A DNA stretch of 64,000 bases from Acidobacteriota bacterium (GCA_040754075.1 JBFMDH010000001.1:166262-230261), one strand, 5' to 3'; numbered from the stretch's first letter, positions 37,585-58,950 are shown. The notes: generated by a model not told the origin, from the sequence alone. Numbers and translations: made by a program.

Positions 37585-37941
37585 ATGGAGTATTCGGTCA
37601 TCGTTGAAAATCATAATGGCGTTTGGCGGGCGGTGATTCCGGCGCTTTCTGACCTCTCGGCAGAAGGCGCGTCGGAAGCAGAAGCGGTTGACCGAGCCAA
37701 ACAAGCGGCAGAGAAGTTTCTCGCCTCAGTGAAGATCAAAACGATTGCAGTTAATGTATCCAAGGACGCAGAACCAAGACCGGATAGCCCCCAAGCGTGG
37801 CTACGGGATGCCGGAGCATTTGTTGGCGATGAAGCAGCCATGCTGCAACACATAGAAGAAATTTACGCGGAAAGACAAAGACAGCAAAAAGAGGCGGAGT
37901 TAGAAGAGACACTAACGGGAACGGATAAACCGGCAGCATGA
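37585..37941 (+). CDS. HicB-like (UPF0150) antitoxin-type protein
   Basis: MEYSVIVENHNGVWRAVIPALSDLSAEGASEAEAVDRAKQAAEKFL is a typical HicB N-domain pattern. ATG at 37585 preceded by gggagag. 4 nt ATGA overlap with the PIN gene. Confidence 0.65.
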   Translation: MEYSVIVENHNGVWRAVIPALSDLSAEGASEAEAVDRAKQAAEKFLASVKIKTIAVNVSKDAEPRPDSPQAWLRDAGAFVGDEAAMLQHIEEIYAERQRQQKEAELEETLTGTDKPAA

Positions 37942-38360
37942 AAATCTATGTTTTAGACACAGATATTTGCGGTTTTGTGCAAAGTTCTCACTCGAATACG
38001 CTTCAACAACTGATGTCACTTCCCGCAGAGGCTGTAGTGGTTACCACAATTATTACTTTCGGAGAAGACTTGAGCGGTTGGCTTCCCGCTTGTCGCCATG
38101 CCAAAGATGGCATAACCCGCAGCAAAGCTTTTGCGCGATTACAGAACGGTTTGAAATTTTACTTGAAGCGTCGCTGCTTACCTTTCGATGATGCGGCGGT
38201 GGTTATTTTTGACAAACTGAAATCGCTTAAACTACATATTGGAAATAATGATTTGAGCATTGCAGCCATTACCCTGGCGGTCGGTGGCATTCTCGTAACT
38301 CGCAATGCCAAAGATTTCCAACGCATCCCTGATTTACCATTGGAAGATTGGACAGTATGA
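37938..38360 (+). CDS. vapC: PIN-domain toxin (VapC family)
   Basis: 140 aa. MKIYVLDTDI (first acidic residue), internal GNNDLSIAA and VTRNAKDF are typical VapC motifs. Confidence 0.8.
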   Translation: MKIYVLDTDICGFVQSSHSNTLQQLMSLPAEAVVVTTIITFGEDLSGWLPACRHAKDGITRSKAFARLQNGLKFYLKRRCLPFDDAAVVIFDKLKSLKLHIGNNDLSIAAITLAVGGILVTRNAKDFQRIPDLPLEDWTV

Positions 38361-40119: not shown

Positions 40120-40827
40120 ATGAAATTCGGCGTTGTCGTGTTTCCGGGTTCCAATTGCGACCACGATACCTACCACGTAATCAGCAAAGTCATCGGTCAA
40201 CCGGTCAATTTCATCTGGCATAAAGAAAATTCCATCGGCGAATATGATGCGATCATTCTGCCCGGCGGATTTTCCTATGGCGATTATTTGCGCACCGGCG
40301 CGATTGCCCGTTTCAGTCCGGTGATGGGCGCGGTGAAAGCGTTCGCTGCACAGGGCGGCATCGTGATGGGCATTTGCAATGGCTTTCAGATTCTCTGCGA
40401 AGCCGGGTTACTCCCCGGCGCGTTGATGCGCAATGCCAATCTGAAATTTATTTGCGAACACATCAATATGCGGGTTGAAACGACTGATACACCGTACACG
40501 GCGCTTTGTCAGAAAGGGCAGGTGCTGTCGGTTCCCATCGCGCACGGCGACGGCAATTATTTTTGCGACGCGGCGACTTTGGAAGAACTGAGGCGCGAAA
40601 ACCGCATCATCTTTCGTTATTCGGACGCTAACGGCAATCTCACCGCCGAATCAAATGTGAACGGCTCGCTTGAAAGCATCGCCGGCATCTGCAACCGCGA
40701 ACGTAACGTGCTTGGGTTGATGCCGCACCCCGAACGCGCCAGCGAAGAGATATTAGGCAGCAACGACGGTCGCATCATTTTCCGTTCGCTGGCATACACG
40801 CTTGCCGAACTGGCGAAAGCATCGTAA
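40120..40827 (+). CDS. purQ: phosphoribosylformylglycinamidine synthase subunit PurQ (glutaminase)
   Basis: 235 aa. [25 protein letters not shown] (nucleophile Cys), MPHPER. Confidence 0.95.
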
Positions 40828-40840
40828 AAATAAAGCGATT

Positions 40841-41125
40841 ATGGCAAAAGTTACAGTTAAGGTTAAAAAAGGGAGTGGAACGCAGCCAAGAAAAAAGATA
40901 AGGGAACTTGGCGAACAATTGGATTTGAATGAGAGCCTTAATTCATTGGTTGCTGCCATGCACGACTTTGAAGCCAAATACGGTATGAGTACCCTTGAAT
41001 TTTATGTCCGTTTTGTCGCTGGTAAAATGGGTGACAGCCGTGATTTCATCAAATGGGCAGGTAGTTTTGACCTTTACCAAAATTTATTAAACACACATTT
41101 TCATCAAAATAGTAAAGCAGTTTAA
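40841..41125 (+). CDS. hypothetical small protein, putative antitoxin-like partner of the DUF6516-like gene
   Basis: 94 aa from the ATG at 40841 (MAKVTVKVKKGSG...YGMSTLEFYVRFVAGKMGDSRDFIKWAGSFDLY). Inserted between purQ and purL. Confidence 0.4.
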   Translation: MAKVTVKVKKGSGTQPRKKIRELGEQLDLNESLNSLVAAMHDFEAKYGMSTLEFYVRFVAGKMGDSRDFIKWAGSFDLYQNLLNTHFHQNSKAV

Positions 41126-41209
41126 CCAGATAAAACTCGTTGCTGATGCTTCTCTTGACACTGACCATACACTACTTGCGCAACACACTTGATTAGGAAG
41201 TGAAGAGAG

Positions 41210-41632
41210 ATGAGAAGCATTCTCCAATATTTTGACCGCATTTCAGACATCATAGAATACAGCGAAGCAGAACTTGCTGAAATTGAATTTGAGCAAATCG
41301 ACTCAATTAGCGGAATGATCGATGGGGTCTTGTACTTTCACGACCATTCCCGGTTGGAGTTTACAGAAATCGTTACCATCCAAAAATCGTATGCACATAA
41401 CCGGTTATATCGCTATCAATACATTCAAGCCGAAGAAGCGATTTTTCGATACGACAATGCGCCACATCATCCGGATTTAGTAAACTTTCCGCATCATAAG
41501 CATATAGGTCGAAAAAAGGTTTCATCAACTGAGCCAACTTTGGCGCAAGTTTTAGATGAAATTTCCAAATGGATTAAAGATTCAGCCTTCCCTTTAAAGA
41601 AAGCACGCAAACAGCCACGAACTGGAAAATAA
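41210..41632 (+). CDS. DUF6516-like protein (TumE-type toxin family, tentative)
   Basis: 140 aa. FRYDNAPHHPDLVNFPHHKH motif as I recall it for DUF6516/TumE. Assignment is from memory, not a search. Confidence 0.45.
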   Translation: MRSILQYFDRISDIIEYSEAELAEIEFEQIDSISGMIDGVLYFHDHSRLEFTEIVTIQKSYAHNRLYRYQYIQAEEAIFRYDNAPHHPDLVNFPHHKHIGRKKVSSTEPTLAQVLDEISKWIKDSAFPLKKARKQPRTGK

Positions 41633-41740: not shown

Positions 41741-44029
41741 ATGAACGAACCGAATATAACCCCTGAACTTATTCATTCCCACGGTATCACTGACGAAGAA
41801 TACGAGCGCATCAAAACGCTTTTGGGGCGCGAACCGAATTTTACCGAACTCGGCATCTTCTCGGTGATGTGGTCGGAACATTGTTCTTATAAATCTTCGC
41901 GGGTTCATCTGAAACGTCTGCCCACCGAAGGCGAATGCGTATTACAAGGACCGGGCGAAAATGCCGGTATCGTTGACATCGGCGGCAATCTGGCTGCCGC
42001 CTTCAAAATCGAATCGCACAACCATCCGTCATTCATTGAACCCTATCAAGGCGCAGCCACAGGCGTCGGCGGCATTCTGCGCGATGTCTTCACGATGGGC
42101 GCGCGACCCGTCGCCGCAATGAACTCTCTGCATTTCGGGCAACTCAACGCTACAGCAGGGGCAAGCGAAGAAGAGCGAAAAACCATTGCGCGCAATCGTT
42201 CGATTCTTTCAGGCGTGGTCAAAGGCATAGGCGATTACGGCAACGCCTTCGGAGTGCCGACCATCGGCGGCGAAGTGCGCTTTGCCGATTGTTATTCGCG
42301 AAATCCGCTTGTCAATGCCTTCACGCTCGGCATCGTCGCGCACGATAAAATTTTTTACGGCACCGCCTCAGGCGTCGGCAATCCCGTCATCTATGTTGGC
42401 GCAAAGACCGGACGCGACGGCATACACGGCGCGACCATGGCTTCGGAAGAATTCGATGAAGCATCGGAAGCCAAACGCCCGACCGTGCAGGTCGGCGACC
42501 CCTTCTTAGAAAAACTGCTGCTGGAAGCCTGCCTTGAAGCCATGCGCGCAGGCGCTATCGTCGGCATACAGGATATGGGCGCGGCGGGACTCACGAGTTC
42601 ATCCTGCGAAATGGGCGCGCGTTCGGGAACCGGCGTCGAAATCGATGTTGACCTGGTGCCGCAACGCGAAACCGGAATGACGGCTTACGAGATGATGCTT
42701 TCGGAATCGCAGGAACGCATGCTGATTGTCGCTAAGTCAGGTCACGAACGCGCCGTCATCGAAATTTTCAAGAAGTGGGAACTCGATGCGGTGGTCATCG
42801 GTCGCGTCACCGACGATCAGATGCTCAGGGTCAAACAGGGCGGCAAAGTGGTTGCCGAAATTCCCAACACCGCGCTCACGGACGAAGCGCCGAAATATAA
42901 CCGACCGATTAAAAAGCCCGATTTTACAGGCGAAATCCCTAGTGTCGAACAAGTCGAAAAGACAGCGGCGGAACTCGATGCCACATTTATGAAAATCATC
43001 GCCTCGCCAAACATCGCTTCAAAAGAGTGGGTCTATCATCAGTACGACCACATGGTTCGCACCAACACTGTGGTGATGCCGGGTTCGGATGCGGCGGTCA
43101 TTCGCGTGAAAGAAAAACGCTGCGGTCTGGCGATGACGTTGGATTCCAATGCGCGTTATTGCGAAGCCGACCCGCGCGAAGGCGCAAAACTCGTGATTGC
43201 CGAAGCCTGTCGCAATCTGGTGGCAAGCGGCGCAAGACCTCTGGCGCTGACCAATTGTTTGAACTTCGCGTCGCCTGAACGCCCGGAAGTGATGTGGCAA
43301 TTTTCCGAAACCATAGACGGAATGCGCGAAGCCTGCGAAGCATTCAATACACCTGTGACCGGCGGCAATGTCAGTTTTTATAATGAAACCGAAGGGCGCG
43401 GCATACATCCAACGCCGGTTATCGGCATGGTTGGCAAAGTTTATGATTTGAAGCAGGTCACGCAGCAATGGTTCAAAGCCGAAGACCGCGCGATTATTCT
43501 ATTTGGCAAAACCGAAAACGATTTGGGCGTCAGTGAATATGCGCTTGCTACACGCGGCAAAGCCGATGGCGCGGTGCCAAAAATCGATTTGCAGTTGGAA
43601 AAACGTTTGCAGGATGCCTGTTTTAAAGCCATCACCGAAGGTTTGGTCGAATCGGCGCATGACCCTTCGGATGGCGGACTTGCGGTGGCGCTTGCCGAGA
43701 GTTGTTTTTCAAGTTACCGGCGCGATGCTATTGGGTGCGAAGTCAACCTTGAAGGCGAACTCTCGCAGGCGGCGTTATTATTTGCCGAAACGCCGTCGCG
43801 CATGGTGCTGGCTGTTGCCGCCGAAAATGTCGAGAAAGTATTGGAAATCGCCCGCGAATACGCTATCGAAGCCACGATCATCGGACGCGCCACCGGCAAA
43901 GCGTTAAAAATTTCCGTCAAGGGTGAACCCATCATCAACCGCAAAGTCTCCGAAGTTGAAGCCATCTGGCGCAATGTCTTGCCGCAAGTGTTAGAGACCG
44001 CTTCGATGATTGCCGCCGAACAACGATGA
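41741..44029 (+). CDS. purL: phosphoribosylformylglycinamidine synthase subunit PurL
   Basis: 762 aa. [37 protein letters not shown]. Confidence 0.96.
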
Positions 44030-45610: not shown

Positions 45611-45806
45611 TAGGGAAGCCCATCGCTAATAATTTCCGTTCAAGCAAAACTCCTATTGCGGCAGCAAACCGGTTGATTTCGTTTGACTAACCTCGACCTT
45701 TGTATGTTCGCCTTTTTCGTTGGTAATGACGCGGCAAAACGATTGCGCGTTGAAATCGGATGAAGCAGAATGGTTGTGTCATCTCTTGAGCAATAGAAGG
45801 AAAACC

Positions 45807-46064
45807 ATGACGCACAAAGTTTCTATAGAGCTACCGGATTCGGCGTTCGCGGCGTTGCGGAAATCGCCCGATGAATTTGTCCGTGAAATGCGACTTGCGG
45901 CAGTCGTCAAATGGTATGAACTCGGCGAACTATCGCAAAGCAAAGCCGCCGAAATTGTCGGGTTGAGTCGCGCCGAATTTATCAATGTGTTGTCACGTTT
46001 TCGCGTCTCGCCGTTGCAATACACAGCGGAAGAATTACAAGAGGAATTAGCCGGTGAAGATTGA
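45807..46064 (+). CDS. UPF0175 family antitoxin-like protein
   Basis: 85 aa. LRLAAVVKWYELGELSQSKAAEIVGLSRAEFINVLSRFRVSP is typical of UPF0175. Overlaps the downstream gene by 11 nt. Confidence 0.7.
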   Translation: MTHKVSIELPDSAFAALRKSPDEFVREMRLAAVVKWYELGELSQSKAAEIVGLSRAEFINVLSRFRVSPLQYTAEELQEELAGED

Positions 46065-46542
46065 GAGCGTCGTCATAAATGCCTCGCTCTTGATCGTGCT
46101 GTTCAAAAGCGGAATGGGAGATTTGCTGCCGCAACTTTTCAGGGAAATTTATATTCCCGAAGCCGTATGGCAGGAAATCATCGCAGGCGGCGCACAGGAT
46201 ACTGCCGCGCAAAATTTATCTTCCGCGACCTGGGCGCAGCGCGTTACGGTTTCCGTGACCAACCCAATTATCACAGCTTGGAATTTAGGAGCAGGCGAAT
46301 CAGAAGTCTTGAGTTATGCTCTTGAAAACCCCGGTTATCGCGCAATGGTTGATGACGCGGCAGCGCGCGCTTGCGCGAAAACTTTAAACATACCGACGCT
46401 TGGCACAGGCGGCGCAATCGTGTTGGCGAAAAACCGCAACTTGATTGATTCCGTTACTCAAGCATTAGAGGCTTTGCAAAACTCAGGATTATGGCTATCT
46501 GAAAACATTATTCGATTGCTCAAGCAACAAGCCGACGAATAA
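46054..46542 (+). CDS. DUF3368-type PIN-like nucleic-acid-binding protein
   Basis: 162 aa. Pattern VINASLLI...LGAGESEV...DDAAAR...LNIPTLGTGG. Canonical partner of UPF0175. Confidence 0.65.
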   Translation: MKIESVVINASLLIVLFKSGMGDLLPQLFREIYIPEAVWQEIIAGGAQDTAAQNLSSATWAQRVTVSVTNPIITAWNLGAGESEVLSYALENPGYRAMVDDAAARACAKTLNIPTLGTGGAIVLAKNRNLIDSVTQALEALQNSGLWLSENIIRLLKQQADE

Positions 46543-49091: not shown

Positions 49092-52000
49092 ATGCCGGAA
49101 TATTCCTTTCGTCTGACAATTATTTTTCAGACTTTTGAAAATGACACTGAGCTTGCCGAAGCTCTTTTTTTTCCCGAAATCTCCCGATTTGGCGATAAAG
49201 CGAAAAAATTAGAGAACGCGGTTAAGGAAAATGTCGTGCGCCTTGTCGAAGAAGACGATGCGCTCGCGCTCTATCGTCGTCACTTTACGAGCGAGCCTGA
49301 ACTTGGTGAAGCGCGCGTCACCGTCAATCCGCCACCGAAATCCATCGCCTGGCAAAAGCCGATTGATCTTACTTTTCAAATCCTGCTCTTTACGCATGGC
49401 GAAGACCTGTACATCGCTCACCTTCCACAACTTGGTATCGAAATCATTGGCAGAAACCGGGAAGAACTTGAAGAGAAAATTCCCGCAGAAATTCACGCGC
49501 ATCTCTTACGCATCAAAAAAAATCGCTCACTTGGCGAATTGTTCTGGTTGCAACGCGCCAAAGCGATTCGCCTGGCGCGAACCACTTTTGACGCGACCAT
49601 TCGCACGCCGAAACAGATAGCCAAAAGTCAGTATGCCGCTGACGAAGAGAAAAAATCCGAGCTTGAAAAAGTGGCGACCGATTTAGTCAAAGAGCATTTA
49701 CCGGAGGCTTTTGAGATAGACGAAACCGTCACCCGCATTGCAGACGCGCTTGGCGGTCGCCATCCGCGCAGTGTTTTACTGGTCGGCAAATCGGGCGTCG
49801 GCAAAACCGCTGCGGTGTATGAACTGGTGCGCCGTCGCGCGGCGTTTCGTCTGAGTCGCACACCGTTTTACGCAACCAGCGGCTCGCGACTGGTTGCCGG
49901 CATGTCAGGTTTTGGCATGTGGCAGGAACGTTGCGGCAAAGTCTGGCGCGAGGCTGCAAAACAAAAAGCGATTCTGCATTTCGGCAATCTGCTCGAACTG
50001 ATGGAAGTTGGCAAAAGCACGGCGAACAATCAGGGTATCGCGTCATTCTTTCGCCCCTACATCAGTCGTGGCGATTTGCTCTGCATTGCCGAATGCGCGC
50101 CTGAACAATTGCCCATCATTGAACGCGAAGCGCCAAATCTGCTTGACGCTTTTTTGCAAATTAAAGTTGATGAACCGACAGTTGAACGCGGTTCGGCAAT
50201 TCTGCTGCATTATGCGATTGCGCAAAGCGGGCGCGAGTCGCCGGTTGACCTCGAAGCGATTGAAACGATTGATCGGTTGCATCGCCGCTATGCGACTTAT
50301 TCAGCCTATCCCGGTCGCCCTTTGCGGTTTTTGAAAAATTTATTGCAGGATCGCAAAGGCGGTTCCATCAATGCCGCGATGGTCACTGCGCGTTTTTCCG
50401 AAGAGACCGGTTTGCCGCTATTTTTACTGAACGATGACCTGCCGCTCGATTTAGCGGCGACGCAGAAATTTTTCAGTGAACGGGTCATCGGACAAGCGAG
50501 CGCCGTTGAGTTGGTGGTTAATTTACTGGCGACCGTCAAAGCGCGGCTCACGCGAGCCGGAAAACCGATTGCGTCGTTGATGTTCATCGGGCCCACCGGC
50601 GTTGGCAAAACCGAAATGGCAAAGGCGCTTGCCGAATTCTTATTTCAAAATCGCAATCGCCTGATTCGTTTCGATATGAGCGAATATGCCGATGTGAATT
50701 CCATCGGGCGACTGATTGGCGGCGCGTGGGGAAAAGAAGGCTTGCTTACCGCGAAGGTGCGCGAACAACCGTTTGCGGTGATTCTGCTTGATGAATTTGA
50801 GAAAGCCCATCCGTCATTTTTCGATTTGTTGTTGCAGGTTCTGGGCGAAGGTCGTTTGACCGATGCGATGGGGCGGGTTGCCGATTTTACCAACGCGGTG
50901 GTGATTATGACTTCCAATCTCGGCGCGGAAACTTATAAACGCAATGCGCTGGGGTTTCGTGACGCGACGGATGCCACTGCGCAGGCTCGCGAACATTTTA
51001 TGAAAGCGGTGCAGGCATTTGTGCGTCCCGAATTTTTCAACCGCATCGACCGTATCGTGCCGTTTACACCGCTTGATGAAGCGACCGTATTGAAAATTGC
51101 CCATCGTGAACTGCAACAGATTACGCGACGCGATGGCATTTTCTATCGCGGGGTTGAATTAAATATTACCGAGCAGGTGGCTGAGCGATTGGCGCGAATC
51201 GGCTACGATGCGCGGTATGGGGCGCGACCTCTGAAACGCGCCATCGAACGAGAATTGCTGGTGCCGATTTCCGAAGCGTTGAATTTGCAAACCCTCGATG
51301 TCGGTTTACAGGCGGAGGTGACTGTCGAAGGCGATGAATTGAGTGTAGCGGTGCGCCTTAAAACCGATGAAGCCGGGCGCGTGATTTCCAAATCGTCGAA
51401 GAGCGCGCCGTTTGCCGAACTGGTAAAACAGGCGGCGAAACTCCGCCGCGATGCGCAGAACCTGCGTGGCAGTATCTTTGTTCAGGAGATTCAAAACGAA
51501 ATATTCAACCTTGAACGACTGGCGATGCGGCTTGCGAAAAATAAAACAAAAAATAAATGGCAAGACCCGGCGCAAGCTACAAGCCTTGCGCGGTTGCCCG
51601 ATTTGAAAAATAAATTACAGGCGCTTGAGGTATTCGTCACCCAAACGGCGCAATTTGAAGACGCCGTGTTGTTCTGTTTTTACGGCAAGGAGACCGGCGA
51701 TAAAAACGGTTTGCAGGCGCAACTTGCCGGGATGCAAAAACAGTGGACGGCGCGGTTGTTGGAAATTTACGGATTGCAATTTAAAAAGCCGGATGCGGTG
51801 ACGGTGGCGCTCTATTCGGAAAATGCCAACTGGTTATTTGAACTGGCGCGTGCCTATTTTGAAATCGCGAAACAAATCATGGCGAACGTCGAGGTTGTGG
51901 AATTTGCGGTGCCGTCGCATCAGGAAAGCGAAGCGATAAAGCTTCGCGTCAAAGCCGGTGAAAAAGTTGAGGTTTTTAATTTGCTGGGGCGCGTGACCAT

Positions 52001-52394
52001 TAAACGCCAGGTGAAAAAGCCGGAGGAATTTTTATCCGCGCCGAACGCGCAAACCGTTGGTATCGTGTTGGGCATAGCGGGTGAAATGGTGTTTCCGAGA
52101 TTTGAACCCGAACATGATTTGCACGCCATGACGGTTGCCAAACAAACCCATAACTGTTTGGTACATACCAGTGAAGCGCGCCTCGAAGATTACCTGCCGG
52201 TGAAAGAATTGGATAAACGCGGCAGCATCAAGCATCAGGACGCGCGACGCCTTTATAACCGCGACGACAGCTCGGTTGAAGATTTGTCGCTTGAAGAGAA
52301 ATTTTACTTAGACCGTGATAATTTAGTTGCGGTTGTGCATCAGGCGATTGAACGCCGCTTGCTCAAAAGCGCGCAAGGATTGCTGGATGAATGA
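49092..52394 (+). CDS. atypical ClpA/ClpC-like double-AAA+ ATPase with novel N-domain and C-terminal release-factor-like module (paralogue 1)
   Basis: 1100 aa.
- NBD1: Walker A GKSGVGKT; Walker B position reads AILHFGNLLEL (no acidic pair).
- NBD2: GPTGVGKT, ILLDEFEKAH, TSNLG, GARPLKRAIEREL.
- LGF at aa 620-622, at the ClpA IGL-loop position.
- C-terminal aa ~775-1100 aligns with RF1/RF2 motifs (see findings). Confidence 0.85.
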   Translation: MPEYSFRLTIIFQTFENDTELAEALFFPEISRFGDKAKKLENAVKENVVRLVEEDDALALYRRHFTSEPELGEARVTVNPPPKSIAWQKPIDLTFQILLFTHGEDLYIAHLPQLGIEIIGRNREELEEKIPAEIHAHLLRIKKNRSLGELFWLQRAKAIRLARTTFDATIRTPKQIAKSQYAADEEKKSELEKVATDLVKEHLPEAFEIDETVTRIADALGGRHPRSVLLVGKSGVGKTAAVYELVRRRAAFRLSRTPFYATSGSRLVAGMSGFGMWQERCGKVWREAAKQKAILHFGNLLELMEVGKSTANNQGIASFFRPYISRGDLLCIAECAPEQLPIIEREAPNLLDAFLQIKVDEPTVERGSAILLHYAIAQSGRESPVDLEAIETIDRLHRRYATYSAYPGRPLRFLKNLLQDRKGGSINAAMVTARFSEETGLPLFLLNDDLPLDLAATQKFFSERVIGQASAVELVVNLLATVKARLTRAGKPIASLMFIGPTGVGKTEMAKALAEFLFQNRNRLIRFDMSEYADVNSIGRLIGGAWGKEGLLTAKVREQPFAVILLDEFEKAHPSFFDLLLQVLGEGRLTDAMGRVADFTNAVVIMTSNLGAETYKRNALGFRDATDATAQAREHFMKAVQAFVRPEFFNRIDRIVPFTPLDEATVLKIAHRELQQITRRDGIFYRGVELNITEQVAERLARIGYDARYGARPLKRAIERELLVPISEALNLQTLDVGLQAEVTVEGDELSVAVRLKTDEAGRVISKSSKSAPFAELVKQAAKLRRDAQNLRGSIFVQEIQNEIFNLERLAMRLAKNKTKNKWQDPAQATSLARLPDLKNKLQALEVFVTQTAQFEDAVLFCFYGKETGDKNGLQAQLAGMQKQWTARLLEIYGLQFKKPDAVTVALYSENANWLFELARAYFEIAKQIMANVEVVEFAVPSHQESEAIKLRVKAGEKVEVFNLLGRVTIKRQVKKPEEFLSAPNAQTVGIVLGIAGEMVFPRFEPEHDLHAMTVAKQTHNCLVHTSEARLEDYLPVKELDKRGSIKHQDARRLYNRDDSSVEDLSLEEKFYLDRDNLVAVVHQAIERRLLKSAQGLLDE

Positions 52395-52550: not shown

Positions 52551-55500
52551 GTGAACATAACGCTTCCGATTTACATTCAAAAACCTGCGCCGCAAGACAC
52601 CTTGCCGCCGACGCATATTCTGCGCCCGCTGTTTTTCCCCTATATCGAAGTGCAGGGCGAAGACCTCAATCGCGCCGTCACCAAGCTGGCGCAAAAGATT
52701 CGCCACGAGTGTGACCGACTCGGTAAGGCGATGCGTCACGACCAACTTTCAAAATTTGGTTTCGCGCCTGACCTCGAAGACCGCTTTTTGAAACTCACGC
52801 TCGACCTCGGCAGTCGAAAAGCCGAGTGCAATTTTCTATTTGTCGTCATGCAAACGGTGGGGCGCAAAATTGCTTTTACTCCGGCGCTTGCCGATTTATG
52901 GTTTGAGATTCATCGCGGCGAAACCTTAGTCAACCGCGCCACCGAAGTTCTGTCGCATTACTTTCGCCAGAAACAGAAACGCGAAGGCAACGATGCCCTG
53001 AGACCCGAAGCCTTTTCGGTCAGCGGTAAAGCCTGGGTAACGACGCTCGACATCAGCATCAATCCACCGGCGCGCGCGCCCAAGCTTGTGCAAAATCTCT
53101 TTGCCCTGCTTGGCGAAGCGCCGCAGATGGATGGCGCGGAAGAACTCAATCGCGTCGGGCGATGCCTCGATTATCTTTACCCGGACGATTTGCAGCGGGT
53201 GATTTTTCGGGAGACGGAAACTGAAGCCTTGACCGCGATTTTGAAATCGCAGGACAAACGCCCGGTGCTGTTAATCGGCGAACGCCTGGTCGGAAAGACG
53301 GCGATCATTCACGAATATGTGCATCGCGCTGTGAGCCAACGTCACTCGAAATTCGACGCGAAAAATCAAGTGTGGTTGATTGCGCCGCAACGGTTGATTT
53401 CGGGAATGTCTTACGTCGGGCAGTGGGAAAACCGTCTGCTGGCGATTTTGAAAGTTGCGAAAAAAAAGCAACACATTCTCTACTTCGATGATTTGCTCGG
53501 ACTCTATCAAGCCGGGCAGAGCGCCAGTTCTTCTCTAAGCGTTGCCGATGTTTTAAAACCTTATGTAGAAAAACGCGAAGTGCGCATCCTTGGCGAAATC
53601 ACTCCCGAAGCCTTTCGGGTATTTCAGGAACGCGACCGCGGCTTTGCCGATTCCTTTCATCTGTTGCCGGTCAAAGAACCCGATGAAGATAAAACCTTTC
53701 GCATTCTTCTGCATTTGATGCGCGAGCTTGAGCGCAAACATCGCGCCACTTTTTCTACGGATGTTTTTCCGACAGTGATGGATGTGCAGCGACGCTACAC
53801 ACGCGATGCGGTGTTCCCCGGCAAGGCGGCGATTTTCCTGCAACAACTCGCCGTCAAATATCGCCACGAGCGCGTCACCCGCGATGAAGTATTACAGGAG
53901 TTTCACGCGAAAAGCGGTTTCAGCTTGAATTTTTTGAATGATGAAAACAAACTCACACGGCAAGAGGTAATCGAAGCGGTCGGCAATACGGTCATCGGGC
54001 AGGAGGCGGCGCTTGCTGCCTGTGCGGATGTGGTGTCGATGGCAAAGGCGCGGCTCAATGACCCAGACCGCCCGCTCGCGTCGTTTCTGTTTTTAGGACC
54101 CACAGGGGTTGGCAAAACCCAATGCGCGAAATCGCTTGCGGCATATCTGTACGGCGATGGCGATAAACTTATTCGTTTCGATATGAATGAATATTCGTCG
54201 CCCTATGCGGTGGCAAGACTGGTCGGCACATTCCATCAACCCGAAGGATTGCTCACCAGCGCCGCGCGGCGGCAACCGTTTTCGGTAGTGTTGTTTGATG
54301 AAATCGAAAAGGCGCACCCGGATGTTTTCAATCTTTTATTGCAGGTAATGGGTGACGGGCGGCTTACGGATGCGCTCGGACGAACGGTCGATTTTACCAA
54401 CGCGATGGTCATTTTAACCTCGAACCTCGGCGTCAAAGAGGCTGCGAAAAATCTGGGCTTTCATCGTGACAGAGAACGCGATGGGCAGGTTTATACGCAA
54501 GCCGCCGAGAAATTTTTCAAGCCGGAATTTTTCAATCGCCTCGACCGCATCGTGCCGTTTGCAAGGCTCGGACGCGAAGAGGTGATGCAGATTGCCGAAG
54601 GGTTGATTCAACAGGTTTTTGCGCGTGAAGGATTGGTGCGCCGCAAATGTATTTTACAGGTGGATGAACGGGCAATGGCGCGCATTGTTGAGGAAGGTTA
54701 TCACCCACAACTCGGAGCGCGCGCCCTGAAACGCCTGCTTGAACGCGAGTTGACCCAACCGGTGGCAAGACAACTTGCGACTCTTAAACCCGATGCGCCC
54801 ACGCTCATTAAAGTTTATCCGGCGGCAAGTGAGCTAAAAGTTACGGTCGATTCATTGAAAGGCGCAACGTTGAATGATGAGAGCGCAAGGTTGATTGAAG
54901 GGGTTGCGCCAAAACAGATTGTTGAGCTTGCGGAAGCCGCAGTTGACCGCATTGAATCGCAGGCGGCAAAGATGAGTCCGCAAGGGCTGATCAATCCCGA
55001 TGCCGTGGATGCTACACAACTCGCCTATTTTCAAATTCGCGAACAGGCGCGCCGGGCGCGTGAACTTTGTGAAAAGGTCGCGGCAAAAATCAAACCAACC
55101 GGAAAGCCACTGGTGTCGCGTTCACGCGGTCGCAGCATTGCGGCTTCGCAATTCACTTTGCGTCAGGTAAGCGTCGGAGATTTATGGCAACGATTGATTG
55201 AAGCGGGTGATGTGCGTCAGTTGATGCGCGAACTGCTAACCACTGCCCAACCCTATGGTGAACGCCTCGAAGATTACCTTTCAGAGTTAACGCGCGAGAC
55301 CGCCTTGCTTGAGGTGATTGCGCAAAGCAACGATGAGGTTTCAACCCATCAGGCATTGATGTTGATTCAATCGCTGGACGAAGCCTTTAAAGTCGAGCGT
55401 GAACGGCTGGCAAAAATTTATCACGAACTCTTTACCTATAAACTGGGAAGCCGCGCAGAGTTATTGACCGGCAATCAGGAGGCGGCGGCTTTGCACAGCG

Positions 55501-55877
55501 ATGCCGTGTTGATTCAAGGCGTAAATGTGTTGGCGCTGGCTAAACCCGAAACCGGCGCTCACCTGTTTTACACGGCTAAAGAACAACTCGTGCCGTTGCA
55601 AATTCACGTCTTGCCGGTAATTGACCATTCCGCAGCCGCGACGATTCGCCGGTTTGCTGAAAGTCAGAAGAGGCGATTAAGCGAGCCGGTCGATACCAAC
55701 GAAACCGATTTAAACGAGGCATCGGTTATTCGGGTTTATGAAGAGAACGGCGCGACGCTTGATTTACGCTCAGGACTGATGACGCTCAAGATGCCGACGA
55801 CGAAAGAACTGCGCGCCTTGTTACTTGCGGCTTTGCCATTGCCAATGGAGATGCAATCGGTAGTCGGTAGCCGGTAG
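52551..55877 (+). CDS. atypical ClpA/ClpC-like double-AAA+ ATPase with novel N-domain and C-terminal release-factor-like module (paralogue 2)
   Basis: 1108 aa, GTG start.
- NBD1: GERLVGKT; Walker B ILYFDDLL.
- NBD2: GPTGVGKT, VLFDEIEKAH, TSNLG, GARALKRLLEREL.
- LGF at aa 635-637.
- C-terminal aa ~785-1108 is RF-like (ETGAHLF, IRVYEENGATLDLRSG). Confidence 0.85.
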   Translation: MNITLPIYIQKPAPQDTLPPTHILRPLFFPYIEVQGEDLNRAVTKLAQKIRHECDRLGKAMRHDQLSKFGFAPDLEDRFLKLTLDLGSRKAECNFLFVVMQTVGRKIAFTPALADLWFEIHRGETLVNRATEVLSHYFRQKQKREGNDALRPEAFSVSGKAWVTTLDISINPPARAPKLVQNLFALLGEAPQMDGAEELNRVGRCLDYLYPDDLQRVIFRETETEALTAILKSQDKRPVLLIGERLVGKTAIIHEYVHRAVSQRHSKFDAKNQVWLIAPQRLISGMSYVGQWENRLLAILKVAKKKQHILYFDDLLGLYQAGQSASSSLSVADVLKPYVEKREVRILGEITPEAFRVFQERDRGFADSFHLLPVKEPDEDKTFRILLHLMRELERKHRATFSTDVFPTVMDVQRRYTRDAVFPGKAAIFLQQLAVKYRHERVTRDEVLQEFHAKSGFSLNFLNDENKLTRQEVIEAVGNTVIGQEAALAACADVVSMAKARLNDPDRPLASFLFLGPTGVGKTQCAKSLAAYLYGDGDKLIRFDMNEYSSPYAVARLVGTFHQPEGLLTSAARRQPFSVVLFDEIEKAHPDVFNLLLQVMGDGRLTDALGRTVDFTNAMVILTSNLGVKEAAKNLGFHRDRERDGQVYTQAAEKFFKPEFFNRLDRIVPFARLGREEVMQIAEGLIQQVFAREGLVRRKCILQVDERAMARIVEEGYHPQLGARALKRLLERELTQPVARQLATLKPDAPTLIKVYPAASELKVTVDSLKGATLNDESARLIEGVAPKQIVELAEAAVDRIESQAAKMSPQGLINPDAVDATQLAYFQIREQARRARELCEKVAAKIKPTGKPLVSRSRGRSIAASQFTLRQVSVGDLWQRLIEAGDVRQLMRELLTTAQPYGERLEDYLSELTRETALLEVIAQSNDEVSTHQALMLIQSLDEAFKVERERLAKIYHELFTYKLGSRAELLTGNQEAAALHSDAVLIQGVNVLALAKPETGAHLFYTAKEQLVPLQIHVLPVIDHSAAATIRRFAESQKRRLSEPVDTNETDLNEASVIRVYEENGATLDLRSGLMTLKMPTTKELRALLLAALPLPMEMQSVVGSR

Positions 55878-56643: not shown

Positions 56644-58950
56644 ATGCCGAGTTTTCGTTTTCCAATTTTAATCTGGGAAGACCACGAAGGATATTTTACC
56701 GCGTGTCCGGTCGAGGGTTTTTATAACACTTTTGCGGGAATAGGTCGCAGTGCCAGTGAAGCGGTTTTTCAATTGAAAGAATTTCTCGCTTATCACTACG
56801 AGAAAAACCCCTGGGCAGCGCCGCCCGATTTTCACGACGCCAAACTCATCGAATTTCGCGCTGATGTGCGCCCGGAATATCGCATTGAAGAAATTGTCGG
56901 CGACCGCAAACAAAAAAATATTTACCCGACCGAAGAAACCCTCGCCTTGCGTTTTGCCTGTGTACACGGCAAACAGCAAGCCGGATTGCTCATCTGTGTG
57001 CTGCCGCTTTTCGGCATACAATTTTATTACTACGATGAAAAGAAACTGAAAGAACTGGCGGTCACCTATGTGCAGGAGAGTTTCAAAGGTCTTGCCCCAC
57101 AACAACTCACAAGATTCTTACCGCCTAAAAATTATCGACTTGATGAAATCGTCATCAATGTTTCACGCAAAGAAACCAGATACGAATACCAACCCTCGCT
57201 TGACACCTTGAACGAAATTGCCGAACCCCTCGGCGACAAACGATTGCGCAGACAATTTTCCGCCGCCTGGGAGCGTGACACGGAAGTTAGAGACCTCGCC
57301 CAGCGCATCGGCAAAGAGAAAGCCAACGTCATCATCGTCGGCGACAGCGGCATCGGTAAAACCACTTTGCTGGTGAACGCGGTGCGTGAAGTTGAACAGC
57401 ATATGATTGCGGGCGATGACGAAGAAAACGCCGGGCGCAAAGCCAGACACCGATTTTATTTGACCAGCGGCGCGCGCATCATCGCAGGGATGCGCTATCT
57501 CGGTCAGTGGGAAGAGCGGGTTGAATCGCTCATTGATGAGCTTGCGGAAATCAATGGCGTGTTATGCGTCGGCAGCATTTTGGACTTAATCCTTGCAGGC
57601 GGTGAAGTGAGCGCCAGCATCGCGGCATTTTTACAGCCCTTTCTGCAACGCGGCGAATTGCAACTCGTAGGCGAAGCGACGCCCACCGAACTCGATGCCT
57701 GCCGAAGATTATTGCCGGGATTTGCCAGCCTGTTTCAAATTCTCAATCTGCAACCGTTCAATCGCGCCCAGGCGATTGCGATTTTGCAACGCGCTTCGGA
57801 AACTTATCAGCGCAATTATCGCATTGAGGCGGCAAGCATCCTGCCGGAACTCGTCTATCGTTTGTTCAATCGCTTCTCGCCTTATCAGGCATTCCCCGGA
57901 AAAGCCATTGCCTTTCTGCATTCGGCATTTGAACGCGCCGAACTTGAACATAAAACGGCAATCACCGGCGAAGACCTGATTCAAAAGTTTGTGCGGCAGA
58001 CCGGACTCCCCGAACTTTTTTTACGCGATGAATTGCCGCTCAACCAGTATGACATCGTTGAATTTTTTGAACAGCAGGTCATCGGGCAACGCGCCGCCTG
58101 TGAAGTTGCGGCAAATCTGGTGACTACATTCAAAGCCGGGTTGAACGACCCGCAACGCCCGATTGGGGTGTTGCTGTTTTGCGGGCCGACCGGGGTTGGC
58201 AAAACCCAACTCGCAAAAGCGATTTCGGAATACCTGTTCGGACAAGGCGAAGAACGCAACCGCTTAATCCGGCTCGATATGAGCGAATATGGCGATTTCG
58301 GCGCGGCAGAACGTTTGATTACCAAGCCCAATGGCGAGCCGAGCGATTTGATTCAGCGGGTACGCCAGCAACCATTCGTTGTGGTGTTGTTCGATGAAAT
58401 CGAAAAAGCCGACGTAGCGGTTTTCGATGCGTTGCTCAGTGTTTTCGATGAAGGGCGCATCACCGACCGTTACGGGCGAACCACTTCATTTCGCAGCGCC
58501 ATCATTATCGCGACGTCGAACATCGGCGCAGATAAAACCGCGAGCATCGGATTCGATGGTCACAATGTGCGCGGTTTTGCCGCGGAGGTGATGACTTTCT
58601 TTCGCCCGGAATTTTTTAATCGCCTGGATGCGGTTGTCGGTTTTCGCGCGCTCGACGAAGAAGCGATTCTCAACGTAACGCGCAAAGAATTAGCTGAGAT
58701 TGCCAAACGCGAAGGGATAAACGCCTCGAATACCAGATTAATTTGGACAGAACGATTAATTGAATATATGGCGAAAGCCGGTTATGACGCGCGATATGGC
58801 GCGCGCCCTTTGCAACGCACCATTGAACAGATGATCGTTGCGCCGCTTTCGCGATTCCTGCTTGAACACCTGATGAGCAAAGGCAAAACCATTCAAGCCG
58901 ATTTCCTCAATGGCGAAATCCGTTTTTCAACTACGGAACATACGGAATAG
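56644..58950 (+). CDS. atypical ClpA/ClpC-like double-AAA+ ATPase with novel N-domain, no C-terminal extension (paralogue 3)
   Basis: 768 aa.
- NBD1: GDSGIGKT; Walker B position reads GVLCVGSILDL.
- NBD2: GPTGVGKT, VLFDEIEKAD, TSNIG, GARPLQRTIEQ.
- IGF at aa 635-637. Confidence 0.85.
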   Translation: MPSFRFPILIWEDHEGYFTACPVEGFYNTFAGIGRSASEAVFQLKEFLAYHYEKNPWAAPPDFHDAKLIEFRADVRPEYRIEEIVGDRKQKNIYPTEETLALRFACVHGKQQAGLLICVLPLFGIQFYYYDEKKLKELAVTYVQESFKGLAPQQLTRFLPPKNYRLDEIVINVSRKETRYEYQPSLDTLNEIAEPLGDKRLRRQFSAAWERDTEVRDLAQRIGKEKANVIIVGDSGIGKTTLLVNAVREVEQHMIAGDDEENAGRKARHRFYLTSGARIIAGMRYLGQWEERVESLIDELAEINGVLCVGSILDLILAGGEVSASIAAFLQPFLQRGELQLVGEATPTELDACRRLLPGFASLFQILNLQPFNRAQAIAILQRASETYQRNYRIEAASILPELVYRLFNRFSPYQAFPGKAIAFLHSAFERAELEHKTAITGEDLIQKFVRQTGLPELFLRDELPLNQYDIVEFFEQQVIGQRAACEVAANLVTTFKAGLNDPQRPIGVLLFCGPTGVGKTQLAKAISEYLFGQGEERNRLIRLDMSEYGDFGAAERLITKPNGEPSDLIQRVRQQPFVVVLFDEIEKADVAVFDALLSVFDEGRITDRYGRTTSFRSAIIIATSNIGADKTASIGFDGHNVRGFAAEVMTFFRPEFFNRLDAVVGFRALDEEAILNVTRKELAEIAKREGINASNTRLIWTERLIEYMAKAGYDARYGARPLQRTIEQMIVAPLSRFLLEHLMSKGKTIQADFLNGEIRFSTTEHTE

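Follow-up and report, generated by a model that had tools for sequence, protein, structure and literature searches.

The stretch of 64,000 nucleotides from an Acidobacteriota bacterium (GCA_040754075.1 JBFMDH010000001.1:166262-230261), herein called the window, contains three tandem genes whose products, P1, P2, and P3, constitute an undescribed three-subunit family of Clp ATPases. Their first ATPase ring is predicted to be silent, and they carry two accessory domains that are new to Clp ATPases: a HicB-like domain at the N terminus and, in two of the three subunits, a C-terminal extension related to class-I release factors. Full-text literature searching turned up no published description of such a three-gene family. 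Taken as a whole, the system is best explained, with moderate confidence, as a hetero-oligomeric Clp unfoldase that would be driven by its second ATPase module (D2), hold a silent first module (D1), dock on ClpP, and use the accessory domains for targeting. The genes and the orthologue groups (G1 to G3) to which they belong are the following, with positions counted from the first letter of the window:

49092..52394, +, P1 (group G1), 1100 residues: tandem HicB-like N-domain, D1, D2, and release-factor–like C-extension
52551..55877, +, P2 (group G2), 1108 residues: same architecture as P1
56644..58950, +, P3 (group G3), 768 residues: HicB-like N-domain, D1, and D2, ending without a C-extension

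Family assignment

All three open reading frames (ORFs) are intact. P1 is identical (100%) to a protein in NCBI that bears the annotation "AAA family ATPase [Acidobacteriota bacterium]." The paralogues share 35 to 37% mutual identity over D1–D2, and the triplication is therefore old. Each chain contains two AAA+ modules, as in double-ring ATPases, the second being of the AAA_2 type and followed by a D2-small domain, and D1 aligns to the D1 modules of ClpA, ClpB, and ClpC. Herein, the Pfam families AAA_2 (E 7e-45 to 6e-37) and ClpB_D2-small match the second module of all three proteins (residues 491–735 in P1), and D1 is matched weakly, by generic P-loop models only. The equivalog models TIGR03346 (ClpB) and TIGR02639 (ClpA) score P1, P2, and P3 at 326, 378, and 323 bits and at 297, 373, and 286 bits, respectively, which is far below their cut-offs of 1232 and 993 bits. 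Judged from these matches, P1, P2, and P3 belong to the Hsp100/Clp superfamily.

The core of P1 aligns contiguously to ClpA, with residues 177–743 matching positions 154–732 of TIGR02639 and residues 213–747 matching residues 195–737 of the ClpA structure 1ksf as one stretch. Alignments to ClpB are split in two and omit ClpB residues ~400–510, the M-domain. By alignment, the core is ClpA-like and has no M-domain. Nothing is found by Pfam in the N-terminal 200 residues of P1–P3, and the Clp_N domain gives no match on residues 1–200 even at E = 10.

The first ATPase module

Conservation was followed in 120 orthologues per gene (G1, G2, and G3; 360 in total; identity 45–100%). The register of D1 was checked by phmmer searches against PDB chains (ClpB and ClpC structures) and by a MAFFT alignment with E. 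coli ClpB, the sequence of which matches the HMMER printouts. The positions concerned are:

49785..49808, +, P1 D1 Walker A GKSGVGKT, residues 232–239 with K238 (MAFFT; Lys in 119 of 120 G1 orthologues)
49905..49931, +, P1 D1 pore-1 loop SGFGMWQER, with Gly at the position of ClpB Tyr251 and Phe at +1
49971..49994, +, P1 degenerate D1 Walker B ILHFGNLL, residues 294–301 (phmmer to ClpB, MAFFT)
49983..49988, +, P1 G298-N299 at the position of ClpB D278-E279 (phmmer, MAFFT)
50139..50156, +, P1 LLDAFL, with D-A at the canonical D1 Arg-finger positions, ClpB R331/R332 (alignment)
53277..53300, +, P2 D1 Walker A GERLVGKT
53475..53498, +, P2 D1 Walker B position, ILYFDDLL
57340..57363, +, P3 D1 Walker A GDSGIGKT
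57559..57582, +, P3 D1 Walker B position, VLCVGSIL

An earlier note on this DNA, made by a model from the sequence, had claimed that D1 keeps Walker A and a pore-loop aromatic and has lost the Walker B acidic pair in two of the three paralogues. A shift of register that would reveal a canonical hhhhDE was looked for, and the register of the note was kept by three HMMER alignments as well as by MAFFT. With phmmer, P1 kqka.ILHFGNLLeLMEVGKS stands opposite E. coli ClpB kqegnvILFIDELHTMVGAGK, P2 ILYFD followed by DLLGLYQAGQ opposite T. thermophilus ClpB ILFID followed by ELHTVVGAGK, and P3 VLC followed by VGSILDLILAGG opposite S. aureus ClpC ILF followed by IDELHTLVGAGG. The MAFFT alignment uses the same columns, in which ClpB D278/E279 correspond to G/N in P1, D/D in P2, and G/S in P3. 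ILHFGNLL of P1 and VLCVGSIL of P3 thus have no Asp/Glu pair, exactly at the coordinates given before, and P2 is alone in having Asp-Asp (ILYFDDLL), likewise without the catalytic Glu. In the orthologue groups, the two positions are occupied as follows (of 120 each):

G1 (P1-like): ClpB D278 position, G 117; E279 position, N 113
G2 (P2-like): ClpB D278 position, D 117; E279 position, D 117
G3 (P3-like): ClpB D278 position, D 50, E 49, G 13; E279 position, N 93, S 24

The G-S of P3 itself is a minority form, as G3 orthologues mostly carry D/E-N. The catalytic Glu is missing in all 360 orthologues. The Arg-finger positions R331/R332 are replaced as well, by D/E/Q and A/V in G1 and by D and L/V in G2 and G3; having lost them in all three groups, no subunit can give its neighbor a canonical finger. 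Hence, neither a canonical hhhhDE Walker B nor the D1 Arg finger(s) is found in P1, P2, or P3. The only acidic residues nearby are E302 of P1 and a D/E of G3, four positions after that of the Walker B Asp (+4), where G2 has Gly. As a shifted Walker B they were rejected, since no Asp precedes them.

The two features said to be retained need refinement. The Walker A Lys is present in 119 to 120 of 120 orthologues per group; the P2 form is deviant, having lost the middle Gly (GERLVGKT), and this position is L, M, or Q in 108 of 120 G2 orthologues. For the pore loop, the aromatic residue stands in P2 and P3, with Tyr in 96 and Phe in 19 of the G2 and Tyr in 119 of the G3 orthologues (120 each). 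P1 has Gly at the Tyr251 position, a residue shared by 118 of 120 G1 members, and its Phe follows one residue later (F/Y at +1 in G1).

Mean pairwise identity among the orthologues amounts to 56–63% for D1, 66–69% for D2, and 31–49% for the N- and C-domains, which puts D1 close to D2 in conservation. Because the substitutions are fixed across 120 orthologues per gene, the motif losses of D1 represent a conserved pattern beyond chance and not decay. As far as sequence comparison can tell, D1 is under strong purifying selection though it lacks the catalytic Glu and the Arg fingers.

The second ATPase module and the x-G-F loop

The features of D2 and of the loop that follows its sensor-1 in all three subunits are:

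50589..50612, +, P1 D2 Walker A GPTGVGKT (Lys invariant)
50718..50741, +, P1 shortened D2 pore-1 loop GGAWGKEG (ClpB has GAPPGYVGYEEGG; HMMER puts a 5-residue gap here)
50781..50810, +, P1 canonical D2 Walker B ILLDEFEKAH with D567 and E568 (D-E invariant)
54225..54248, +, P2 D2 pore loop GTFHQPEG
58321..58344, +, P3 D2 pore loop TKPNGEPS
50946..50957, +, P1 A-L-G-F loop (with G621-F622), aligned with the ClpP-docking IGL of ClpA
54450..54461, +, P2 NLGF loop
58543..58554, +, P3 SIGF loop

The Walker A Lys, the Walker B D-E, the sensor-1 Asn, the Arg finger, and the sensor-2 Arg of D2 are invariant in 360 of 360 orthologues. Together with a D1 in which Walker A Lys is kept and both the Glu and the fingers are gone, this complete active site supports the proposal of the earlier note that D1 would bind nucleotide without hydrolysis and D2 would be the motor. 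The note had also read AWGKEG, FHQPEG, and KPNGEP in place of GYVG. This reading is correct, and HMMER places the three strings in a pore-1 loop from which 5 residues are missing relative to the GYVGY loop of ClpB. None of the groups has GYVG: G1 shows G-phi-Ar-G (consensus GG[VTIA][FW]GxEG), G2 shows GTFxQPEG, and G3 is devoid of an aromatic residue.

The loop after D2 sensor-1 contains LGF in P1 and P2 and IGF in P3, all of them of the [LIV]-G-[FL] form known from ClpP partners. HMMER aligns krnALGFrd of P1 with the ClpA loop rkSIGLih in the ClpB–ClpA chimera 5ofo and sIGFd of P3 with fAGFg of S. aureus ClpC. Gly is found in 120, 119, and 120 and Phe in 107, 103, and 117 of 120 orthologues of G1, G2, and G3, respectively, with the rest of the loop being variable; the broader pattern h-G-[FLYM] is found in 85, 113, and 111. 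Judged by alignment, the x-G-F loop has the position and form of a ClpP-docking tripeptide.

Accessory domains

Structure predictions cover the N- and C-domains of P1. The domains are located as follows:

51300..52391, +, P1 C-extension, residues 737–1100, class-I release-factor–like domains 1, 2, and 4 without the GGQ domain (structure model)
54795..55874, +, P2 C-extension, residues 749–1108, release-factor–like (sequence profile)
49092..49601, +, P1 N-domain, residues 1–170, two tandem β-β-β-α-β modules of HicB-like fold
52551..53180, +, P2 N-domain (weaker relation)
56644..57243, +, P3 N-domain

The release-factor–like C-extensions are the most unexpected feature of the locus. Pfam gives no match in these 350-residue regions of P1 and P2; among family members, PCRF is the sole Pfam family matched by more than one C-extension. 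The model of the P1 C-extension was compared with the PDB by Foldseek, and all 39 of 39 hits with E <= 1e-3 are RF1, RF2, or mtRF1 (best E 1.7e-8). As modeled, it has the two parts of the release-factor fold, a helical domain 1 and a domain 2/4 superdomain. When the G1 profile of the extension is searched against the PDB, 5 of 7 matches are RF1 or RF2; these are weak and colinear, and the motif pairs W..LL..Y, L.R.Y..A, I.G..AY....E.G.H, and RTYN..Q..V.D are shared between profile and release factors. The G2 profile finds RF2 in 7 of 8 hits (best E 0.0064), with ViRiYeee.gsvlDlRsGL matching qIRSYVLDkNYVKDHRTGL of RF2. P1 and P2 extensions match each other weakly in the larger alignments (hhalign E 1.4e-4 over 127 columns). 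With the small alignments, G1 and G2 are matched over 42 columns at E 0.0073 and a probability of 5%, and because of this weak match their homology rests more on the separate release-factor matches. The C-extensions are thus related to class-I release factors, as judged from the structure model for P1 and from the sequence profile for P2.

The strand CLVxTSE (RIHTS in release factors) and the segment RRxYN (RTYNF in release factors) are ~25–30 residues apart compared with ~110 in RF1. Since the ~110-residue GGQ domain is replaced by these 25–30 residues, the catalytic domain is absent from the C-extension, in which neither an RF-1 Pfam match nor a conserved GGQ is found. A conserved G-x-Q-x-x-R-R-x-Y-N was considered as a degenerate GGQ loop and rejected, as HMMER pairs it with the RF1 domain-4 motif RNRTYNFPQGRVTDHR. 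The stop-codon tripeptide PxT/SPF was not found in the extension; the G1 consensus continues after G-L-H with FTxxKxxxxCLV, a tentative assignment because the alignment is weak there. In a profile search of 1.84 billion representatives, the module occurs in 744 clusters. Among the best 150 matches listed, it is located at the C terminus of ~1100-residue proteins or of fragments, and neither a stand-alone architecture nor a canonical release factor is present.

For the N terminus, the AlphaFold2 model of P1 residues 1–205 (predicted local distance difference test score 85.9) shows two tandem β-β-β-α-β modules. According to this model, the P1 N-domain has a tandem HicB N-domain fold that replaces Clp_N. 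G1 and G3 have homologous N-domains (hhalign probability 90%, E 1.7e-6), whereas that of G2 is only weakly related (hhalign E 1.5e-3). D1 follows directly after the N-domain, and no HicA-like gene was called beside the triplet in the loci inspected.

Operon conservation and distribution

One genome per species (185,579 species) was scanned with two G1-specific D1 motifs, AGM[ST]GFGM or [HQF][FL]GNL[LVI]ELM. G1 relatives occur in at least 92 species, a count that is a lower bound and biased toward G1. The 80 loci listed are all from metagenome-assembled genomes (MAGs), mostly labeled Acidobacteriota (Blastocatellia, Pyrinomonadaceae), Planctomycetota (Gemmatales, Pirellulales, Tepidisphaerales, Phycisphaerales), or Verrucomicrobiota (Prosthecobacter), and the closest genomic relatives are Blastocatellia MAGs. 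That the members found all come from uncultured representatives of these three phyla would explain why the family has been overlooked. Some members reside in MAG records titled "uncultured Clostridia," "Heliobacteriaceae," "Alcaligenaceae," or "Alphaproteobacteria" (loci L002/L014 on CAZBMZ010000001.1, L012, L013, L016, L028, L031, and L060). Their G1 proteins group with the Acidobacteriota- and Planctomycetota-labeled loci, and the titles look unreliable.

Sufficient downstream sequence is available for 58 loci. G1-G2-G3 follow one another in identical order and on the same strand in 40 of them; of the others, 5 carry G1-G2, G3 lies upstream in 2, and G1 stands alone in 11. The G1-alone loci are scattered in the G1 tree and not basal, which makes the triplet the older state. 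The order long/long/short on one strand is seen, for example, on a 1.3-Mb Blastocatellia contig (L001), on a 4.5-Mb metagenomic contig (L004), and in L005 and L006 (Gemmataceae). In L004, small genes of the mobile or toxin–antitoxin type (PDDEXK_3, PIN with DUF2281, and DUF433) are lodged between the subunit genes, and the intergenic gaps of the operon seem to tolerate insertions. No further gene is kept as a neighbor in the loci inspected; flanking genes are of the housekeeping type and vary between genomes. In the window, one additional ORF lies between P2 and P3:

55897..56553, +, 218-residue ORF with a signal-peptide–like N terminus

It has no family match in Pfam, NCBIfam, or PADLOC, and no gene was called at its position in the triplets L001, L005, and L006. 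It is outside the conserved system.

Proposed mechanism

In the unfoldase proposed here, P1, P2, and P3 would co-assemble, in the simplest form as a (P1-P2-P3)x2 heterohexamer. Co-assembly is suggested by the fixed gene order of old paralogues and by their subunit-specific, complementary features. With ATP bound as a structural cofactor, D1 would form a collar for assembly and substrate entry, to which P2 and P3 still contribute a pore Tyr. D2 would be the sole motor and would grip the substrate by short pore-1 loops, in which P1 and P2 have a single aromatic residue and P3 lacks one. Because the near-invariant x-G-F loop occupies the ClpA/ClpC docking position in all three subunits, the ring would dock on ClpP and pass the substrate to it. 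The HicB-like N-domains of all three subunits and the release-factor–like modules of the two long ones may choose the target. In the most speculative step, the GGQ-less module would attach the machine to ribosomes or to a release-factor partner.

A more specific form of this last step is tentative and rather unlikely: the release-factor–like modules on four of six subunits would recognize the ribosomal A site when the ribosome is stalled or damaged, and D2, perhaps with ClpP, would pull out the nascent chain, or a factor stuck there, and destroy it. By analogy, such a ribosome-docking AAA+ machine might be, as a similarly doubtful comparison, a fused bacterial counterpart of Dom34/Pelota plus ABCE1 or of Vms1 plus Cdc48, which act in the rescue and quality control of archaeal and eukaryotic ribosomes.

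Several points weigh against the proposed unfoldase. That D1 binds nucleotide and does not hydrolyze it, that the subunits co-assemble, and that the machine docks on ClpP and binds ribosomes are all predictions. Canonical release factors are beyond the reach of the profile search, and the homology of the C-domains consists of fold and marginal sequence scores. The D2 pore loops have no canonical Tyr, an oddity if the machine is to translocate processively. In the neighborhoods inspected, the operon has no linked clpP gene, and the 350-residue C-extension near the D2 face could obstruct ClpP docking. In 11 of the 58 loci, G1 is found without G2 or G3 within 6–8 kb, and G1 may work alone in some lineages. 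For D1, the Asp-Asp pair of P2 might permit slow hydrolysis, and the acidic residue at +4 in G1 and G3 could allow noncanonical hydrolysis. Noncanonical catalysis could also come from an invariant Glu, present in 360 of 360 orthologues at the position of ClpB A313 and thus two residues ahead of the sensor-1 Thr of D1, and from conserved Arg residues 4–8 positions upstream of the lost fingers, at ClpB positions 324 (G1), 327 and 320 (G2), and 323 and 324 (G3). The invariant Glu is encoded at:

50091..50093, P1 E334, in AECAP
53595..53597, P2 E349
57673..57675, P3 E344

Alternative explanations

The G1-alone loci would fit a reading in which the three proteins form separate homohexameric Clp ATPases, each with an inactive D1 and its own substrates, that are linked for co-regulation only. 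Characterized bacterial Hsp100/Clp ATPases are homohexamers, and the D2 active site is complete in every paralogue, down to an Arg finger of its own, so that none would need a neighbor of another type. However, the order G1-G2-G3 is held in MAGs labeled as three phyla despite 35 to 37% identity; the groups have complementary features, with D2 pore aromatics in G1 and G2 and not in G3 and the release-factor–like tail in G1 and G2 only; and the scattered, nonbasal position of the G1-alone loci speaks against them as an original state. Separate homohexamers are possible but unlikely.

Similarly doubtful is a remodeler or disaggregase that acts independently of ClpP, like ClpB or ClpG, and in which the x-G-F loop and the two accessory domains bind partners that have nothing to do with proteolysis or ribosomes. 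It would be consistent with the top overall HMM scores, which go to ClpB models, with the lack of a clpP gene beside the operon in the loci inspected, and with large C-extensions near the ClpP-contacting face. Yet the M-domain and the Clp_N domain are missing, and a near-invariant G-F stands in an otherwise variable loop exactly at the ClpA/ClpC docking tripeptide, where E. coli ClpB has no tripeptide. Nor do the weakened pore loops point to a strong disaggregase.

That D1 is still an ATPase by means of noncanonical residues (the invariant Glu, relocated Arg residues, and the D-D of P2), with both rings being motors, is quite improbable. Its best arguments are the Glu at the A313 position in 120 of 120 members of each group, the upstream Arg residues, and the strong conservation of D1 (56–63%). 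On the other hand, the catalytic base of AAA+ proteins directly follows the Walker B Asp, and G1 has neither acidic residue, carrying G-N in 113 to 117 of 120 orthologues. A Glu located two positions inside the sensor-1 strand would normally not reach the γ-phosphate. Moreover, the same positions are degenerate in double-ring AAA+ proteins with an inactive ring, such as D1 of Pex1/Pex6 (PMC9265785).

An antiphage or conflict system, in which the AAA+ protein is a sensor or effector with toxin–antitoxin–type domains, is very improbable. It would be consistent with matches to the PADLOC models PDC-M37B and DolB (E 1e-33 to 1e-22), with an N-domain folded like the HicB antitoxin, and with toxin–antitoxin genes that surround the triplet and, in L004, also occur within it. 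The PADLOC matches, however, are limited to the generic AAA_2 core of D2 (residues 456–636), and the operon has no nuclease, toxin, or other effector, with flanks that are housekeeping and variable between genomes. Among the loci inspected, small toxin–antitoxin genes between subunits are seen only in L004 and do not belong to the conserved triplet.

An alignment artefact or decaying, pseudogene-like paralogues, to which the weak and generic Pfam hits of D1 might point, was tested and is rejected as next to impossible, since three HMMER alignments and MAFFT agree in register, the ORFs are intact, the substitutions are fixed in 120 orthologues, and D1 is 56–63% conserved.

Implications

To our knowledge, characterized Hsp100/Clp unfoldases are homohexamers with two working ATPase rings. 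The family departs from this norm in having a Walker-B–dead first ring that is kept by selection in MAGs labeled as three phyla, three specialized subunits in fixed gene order, and atypical pore loops in the only ring predicted to be active. Its accessory domains are without earlier report on a Clp ATPase; one is HicB-like and in tandem, and the other is the body of a release factor minus the catalytic domain. The family would be a natural experiment on the purpose of a silent AAA+ ring, comparable with Pex1/Pex6 and NSF. If the release-factor–like module binds ribosomes, it would represent a new bacterial route of ribosome rescue or cotranslational quality control, and an uninserted "codon-recognition domain" would be added to the evolutionary history of release factors.

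Toxin–antitoxin genes elsewhere in the window

Outside the operon, the window appears rich in small addiction-type modules:

37938..38360, +, likely toxin–antitoxin gene, presumably PIN-like, overlapping the beginning of the ORF at 38348, which we take to be purB (both named by reading the sequences)
40802..41632, +, two small ORFs, the second of which (41210–41632) has a Pfam match to the TumE toxin family (E 5e-24)
45720..46542, +, likely toxin–antitoxin genes, a UPF0175 and DUF3368 pair

The two small ORFs at 40802–41632 break an apparent purine-biosynthesis run between the ORFs 40120–40827 and 41741–44029, which we take, from reading the sequence, to be purQ and purL. They look like a toxin–antitoxin pair inserted in a housekeeping operon.

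Comparison with known systems

The accessory domains differ from their namesakes. Compared with RF1, RF2, and PrfH, the C-extension has no GGQ domain and no PxT or SPF and is fused to an AAA+ ATPase. A survey of release-factor evolution does not mention Clp, and its AAA+ mentions concern only Cdc48 (PMC6514570). In contrast to HicB, the N-domain is a tandem pair at the N terminus of an ATPase, without the DNA-binding C-domain and without a hicA gene; sequence identity to HicB is 8–13%, and Pfam gives no match.

ClpI of Actinomycetota is likewise a class of Clp unfoldases known from bioinformatics only, with a variable N-domain and with subclasses that do or do not have LGF motifs (PMC10149685). 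It differs in that it is described with intact ATPase modules and an M-domain, belongs to another phylum, and has no release-factor–like or HicB-like domain.

Pex1/Pex6 is a paralogous heterohexamer with a double ring, in which one tier is a nucleotide-binding, nonhydrolyzing scaffold and the other the motor (PMC9265785, PMC4490564). It belongs to the classical AAA+ clade, is eukaryotic, and is built from two paralogues instead of three, and the co-assembly of P1–P3 is a prediction. By this analogy, the resemblance is functional (a silent ring and specialized paralogous subunits) and not one of family membership. NSF, with its D2, is another type II AAA+ protein with one inactive ring.

ClpB and Hsp104 provide the top HMM and PDB matches, and their D2 motifs are identical in kind. 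However, P1–P3 have neither M-domain nor Clp_N, possess the x-G-F loop, and reach 323–378 bits compared with the 1232 required. ClpB needs its catalytic residues in both rings, including those of D1, which P1–P3 lack.

With ClpA and ClpC, P1–P3 share two AAA+ modules without (ClpA) or with a short (ClpC) M-domain, a D1–D2 alignment that is contiguous to ClpA, a canonical D2 followed by D2-small, and a hydrophobic-Gly-Phe/Leu loop after sensor-1. The D1 of ClpA has mainly a supporting role in assembly, and most of the work falls to D2. In contrast to both, P1–P3 lack the Walker B Glu and the Arg fingers of D1, have a shortened loop in place of the GYVG of D2, carry a tandem HicB-like domain instead of Clp_N and a release-factor–like tail on two subunits, are encoded by a three-paralogue operon instead of one gene, and score 286–373 bits compared with the cut-off of 993. 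With a D1 predicted to serve assembly, a D2 as the predicted motor, and a ClpP-type loop, the layout of the core is most like that of ClpA.

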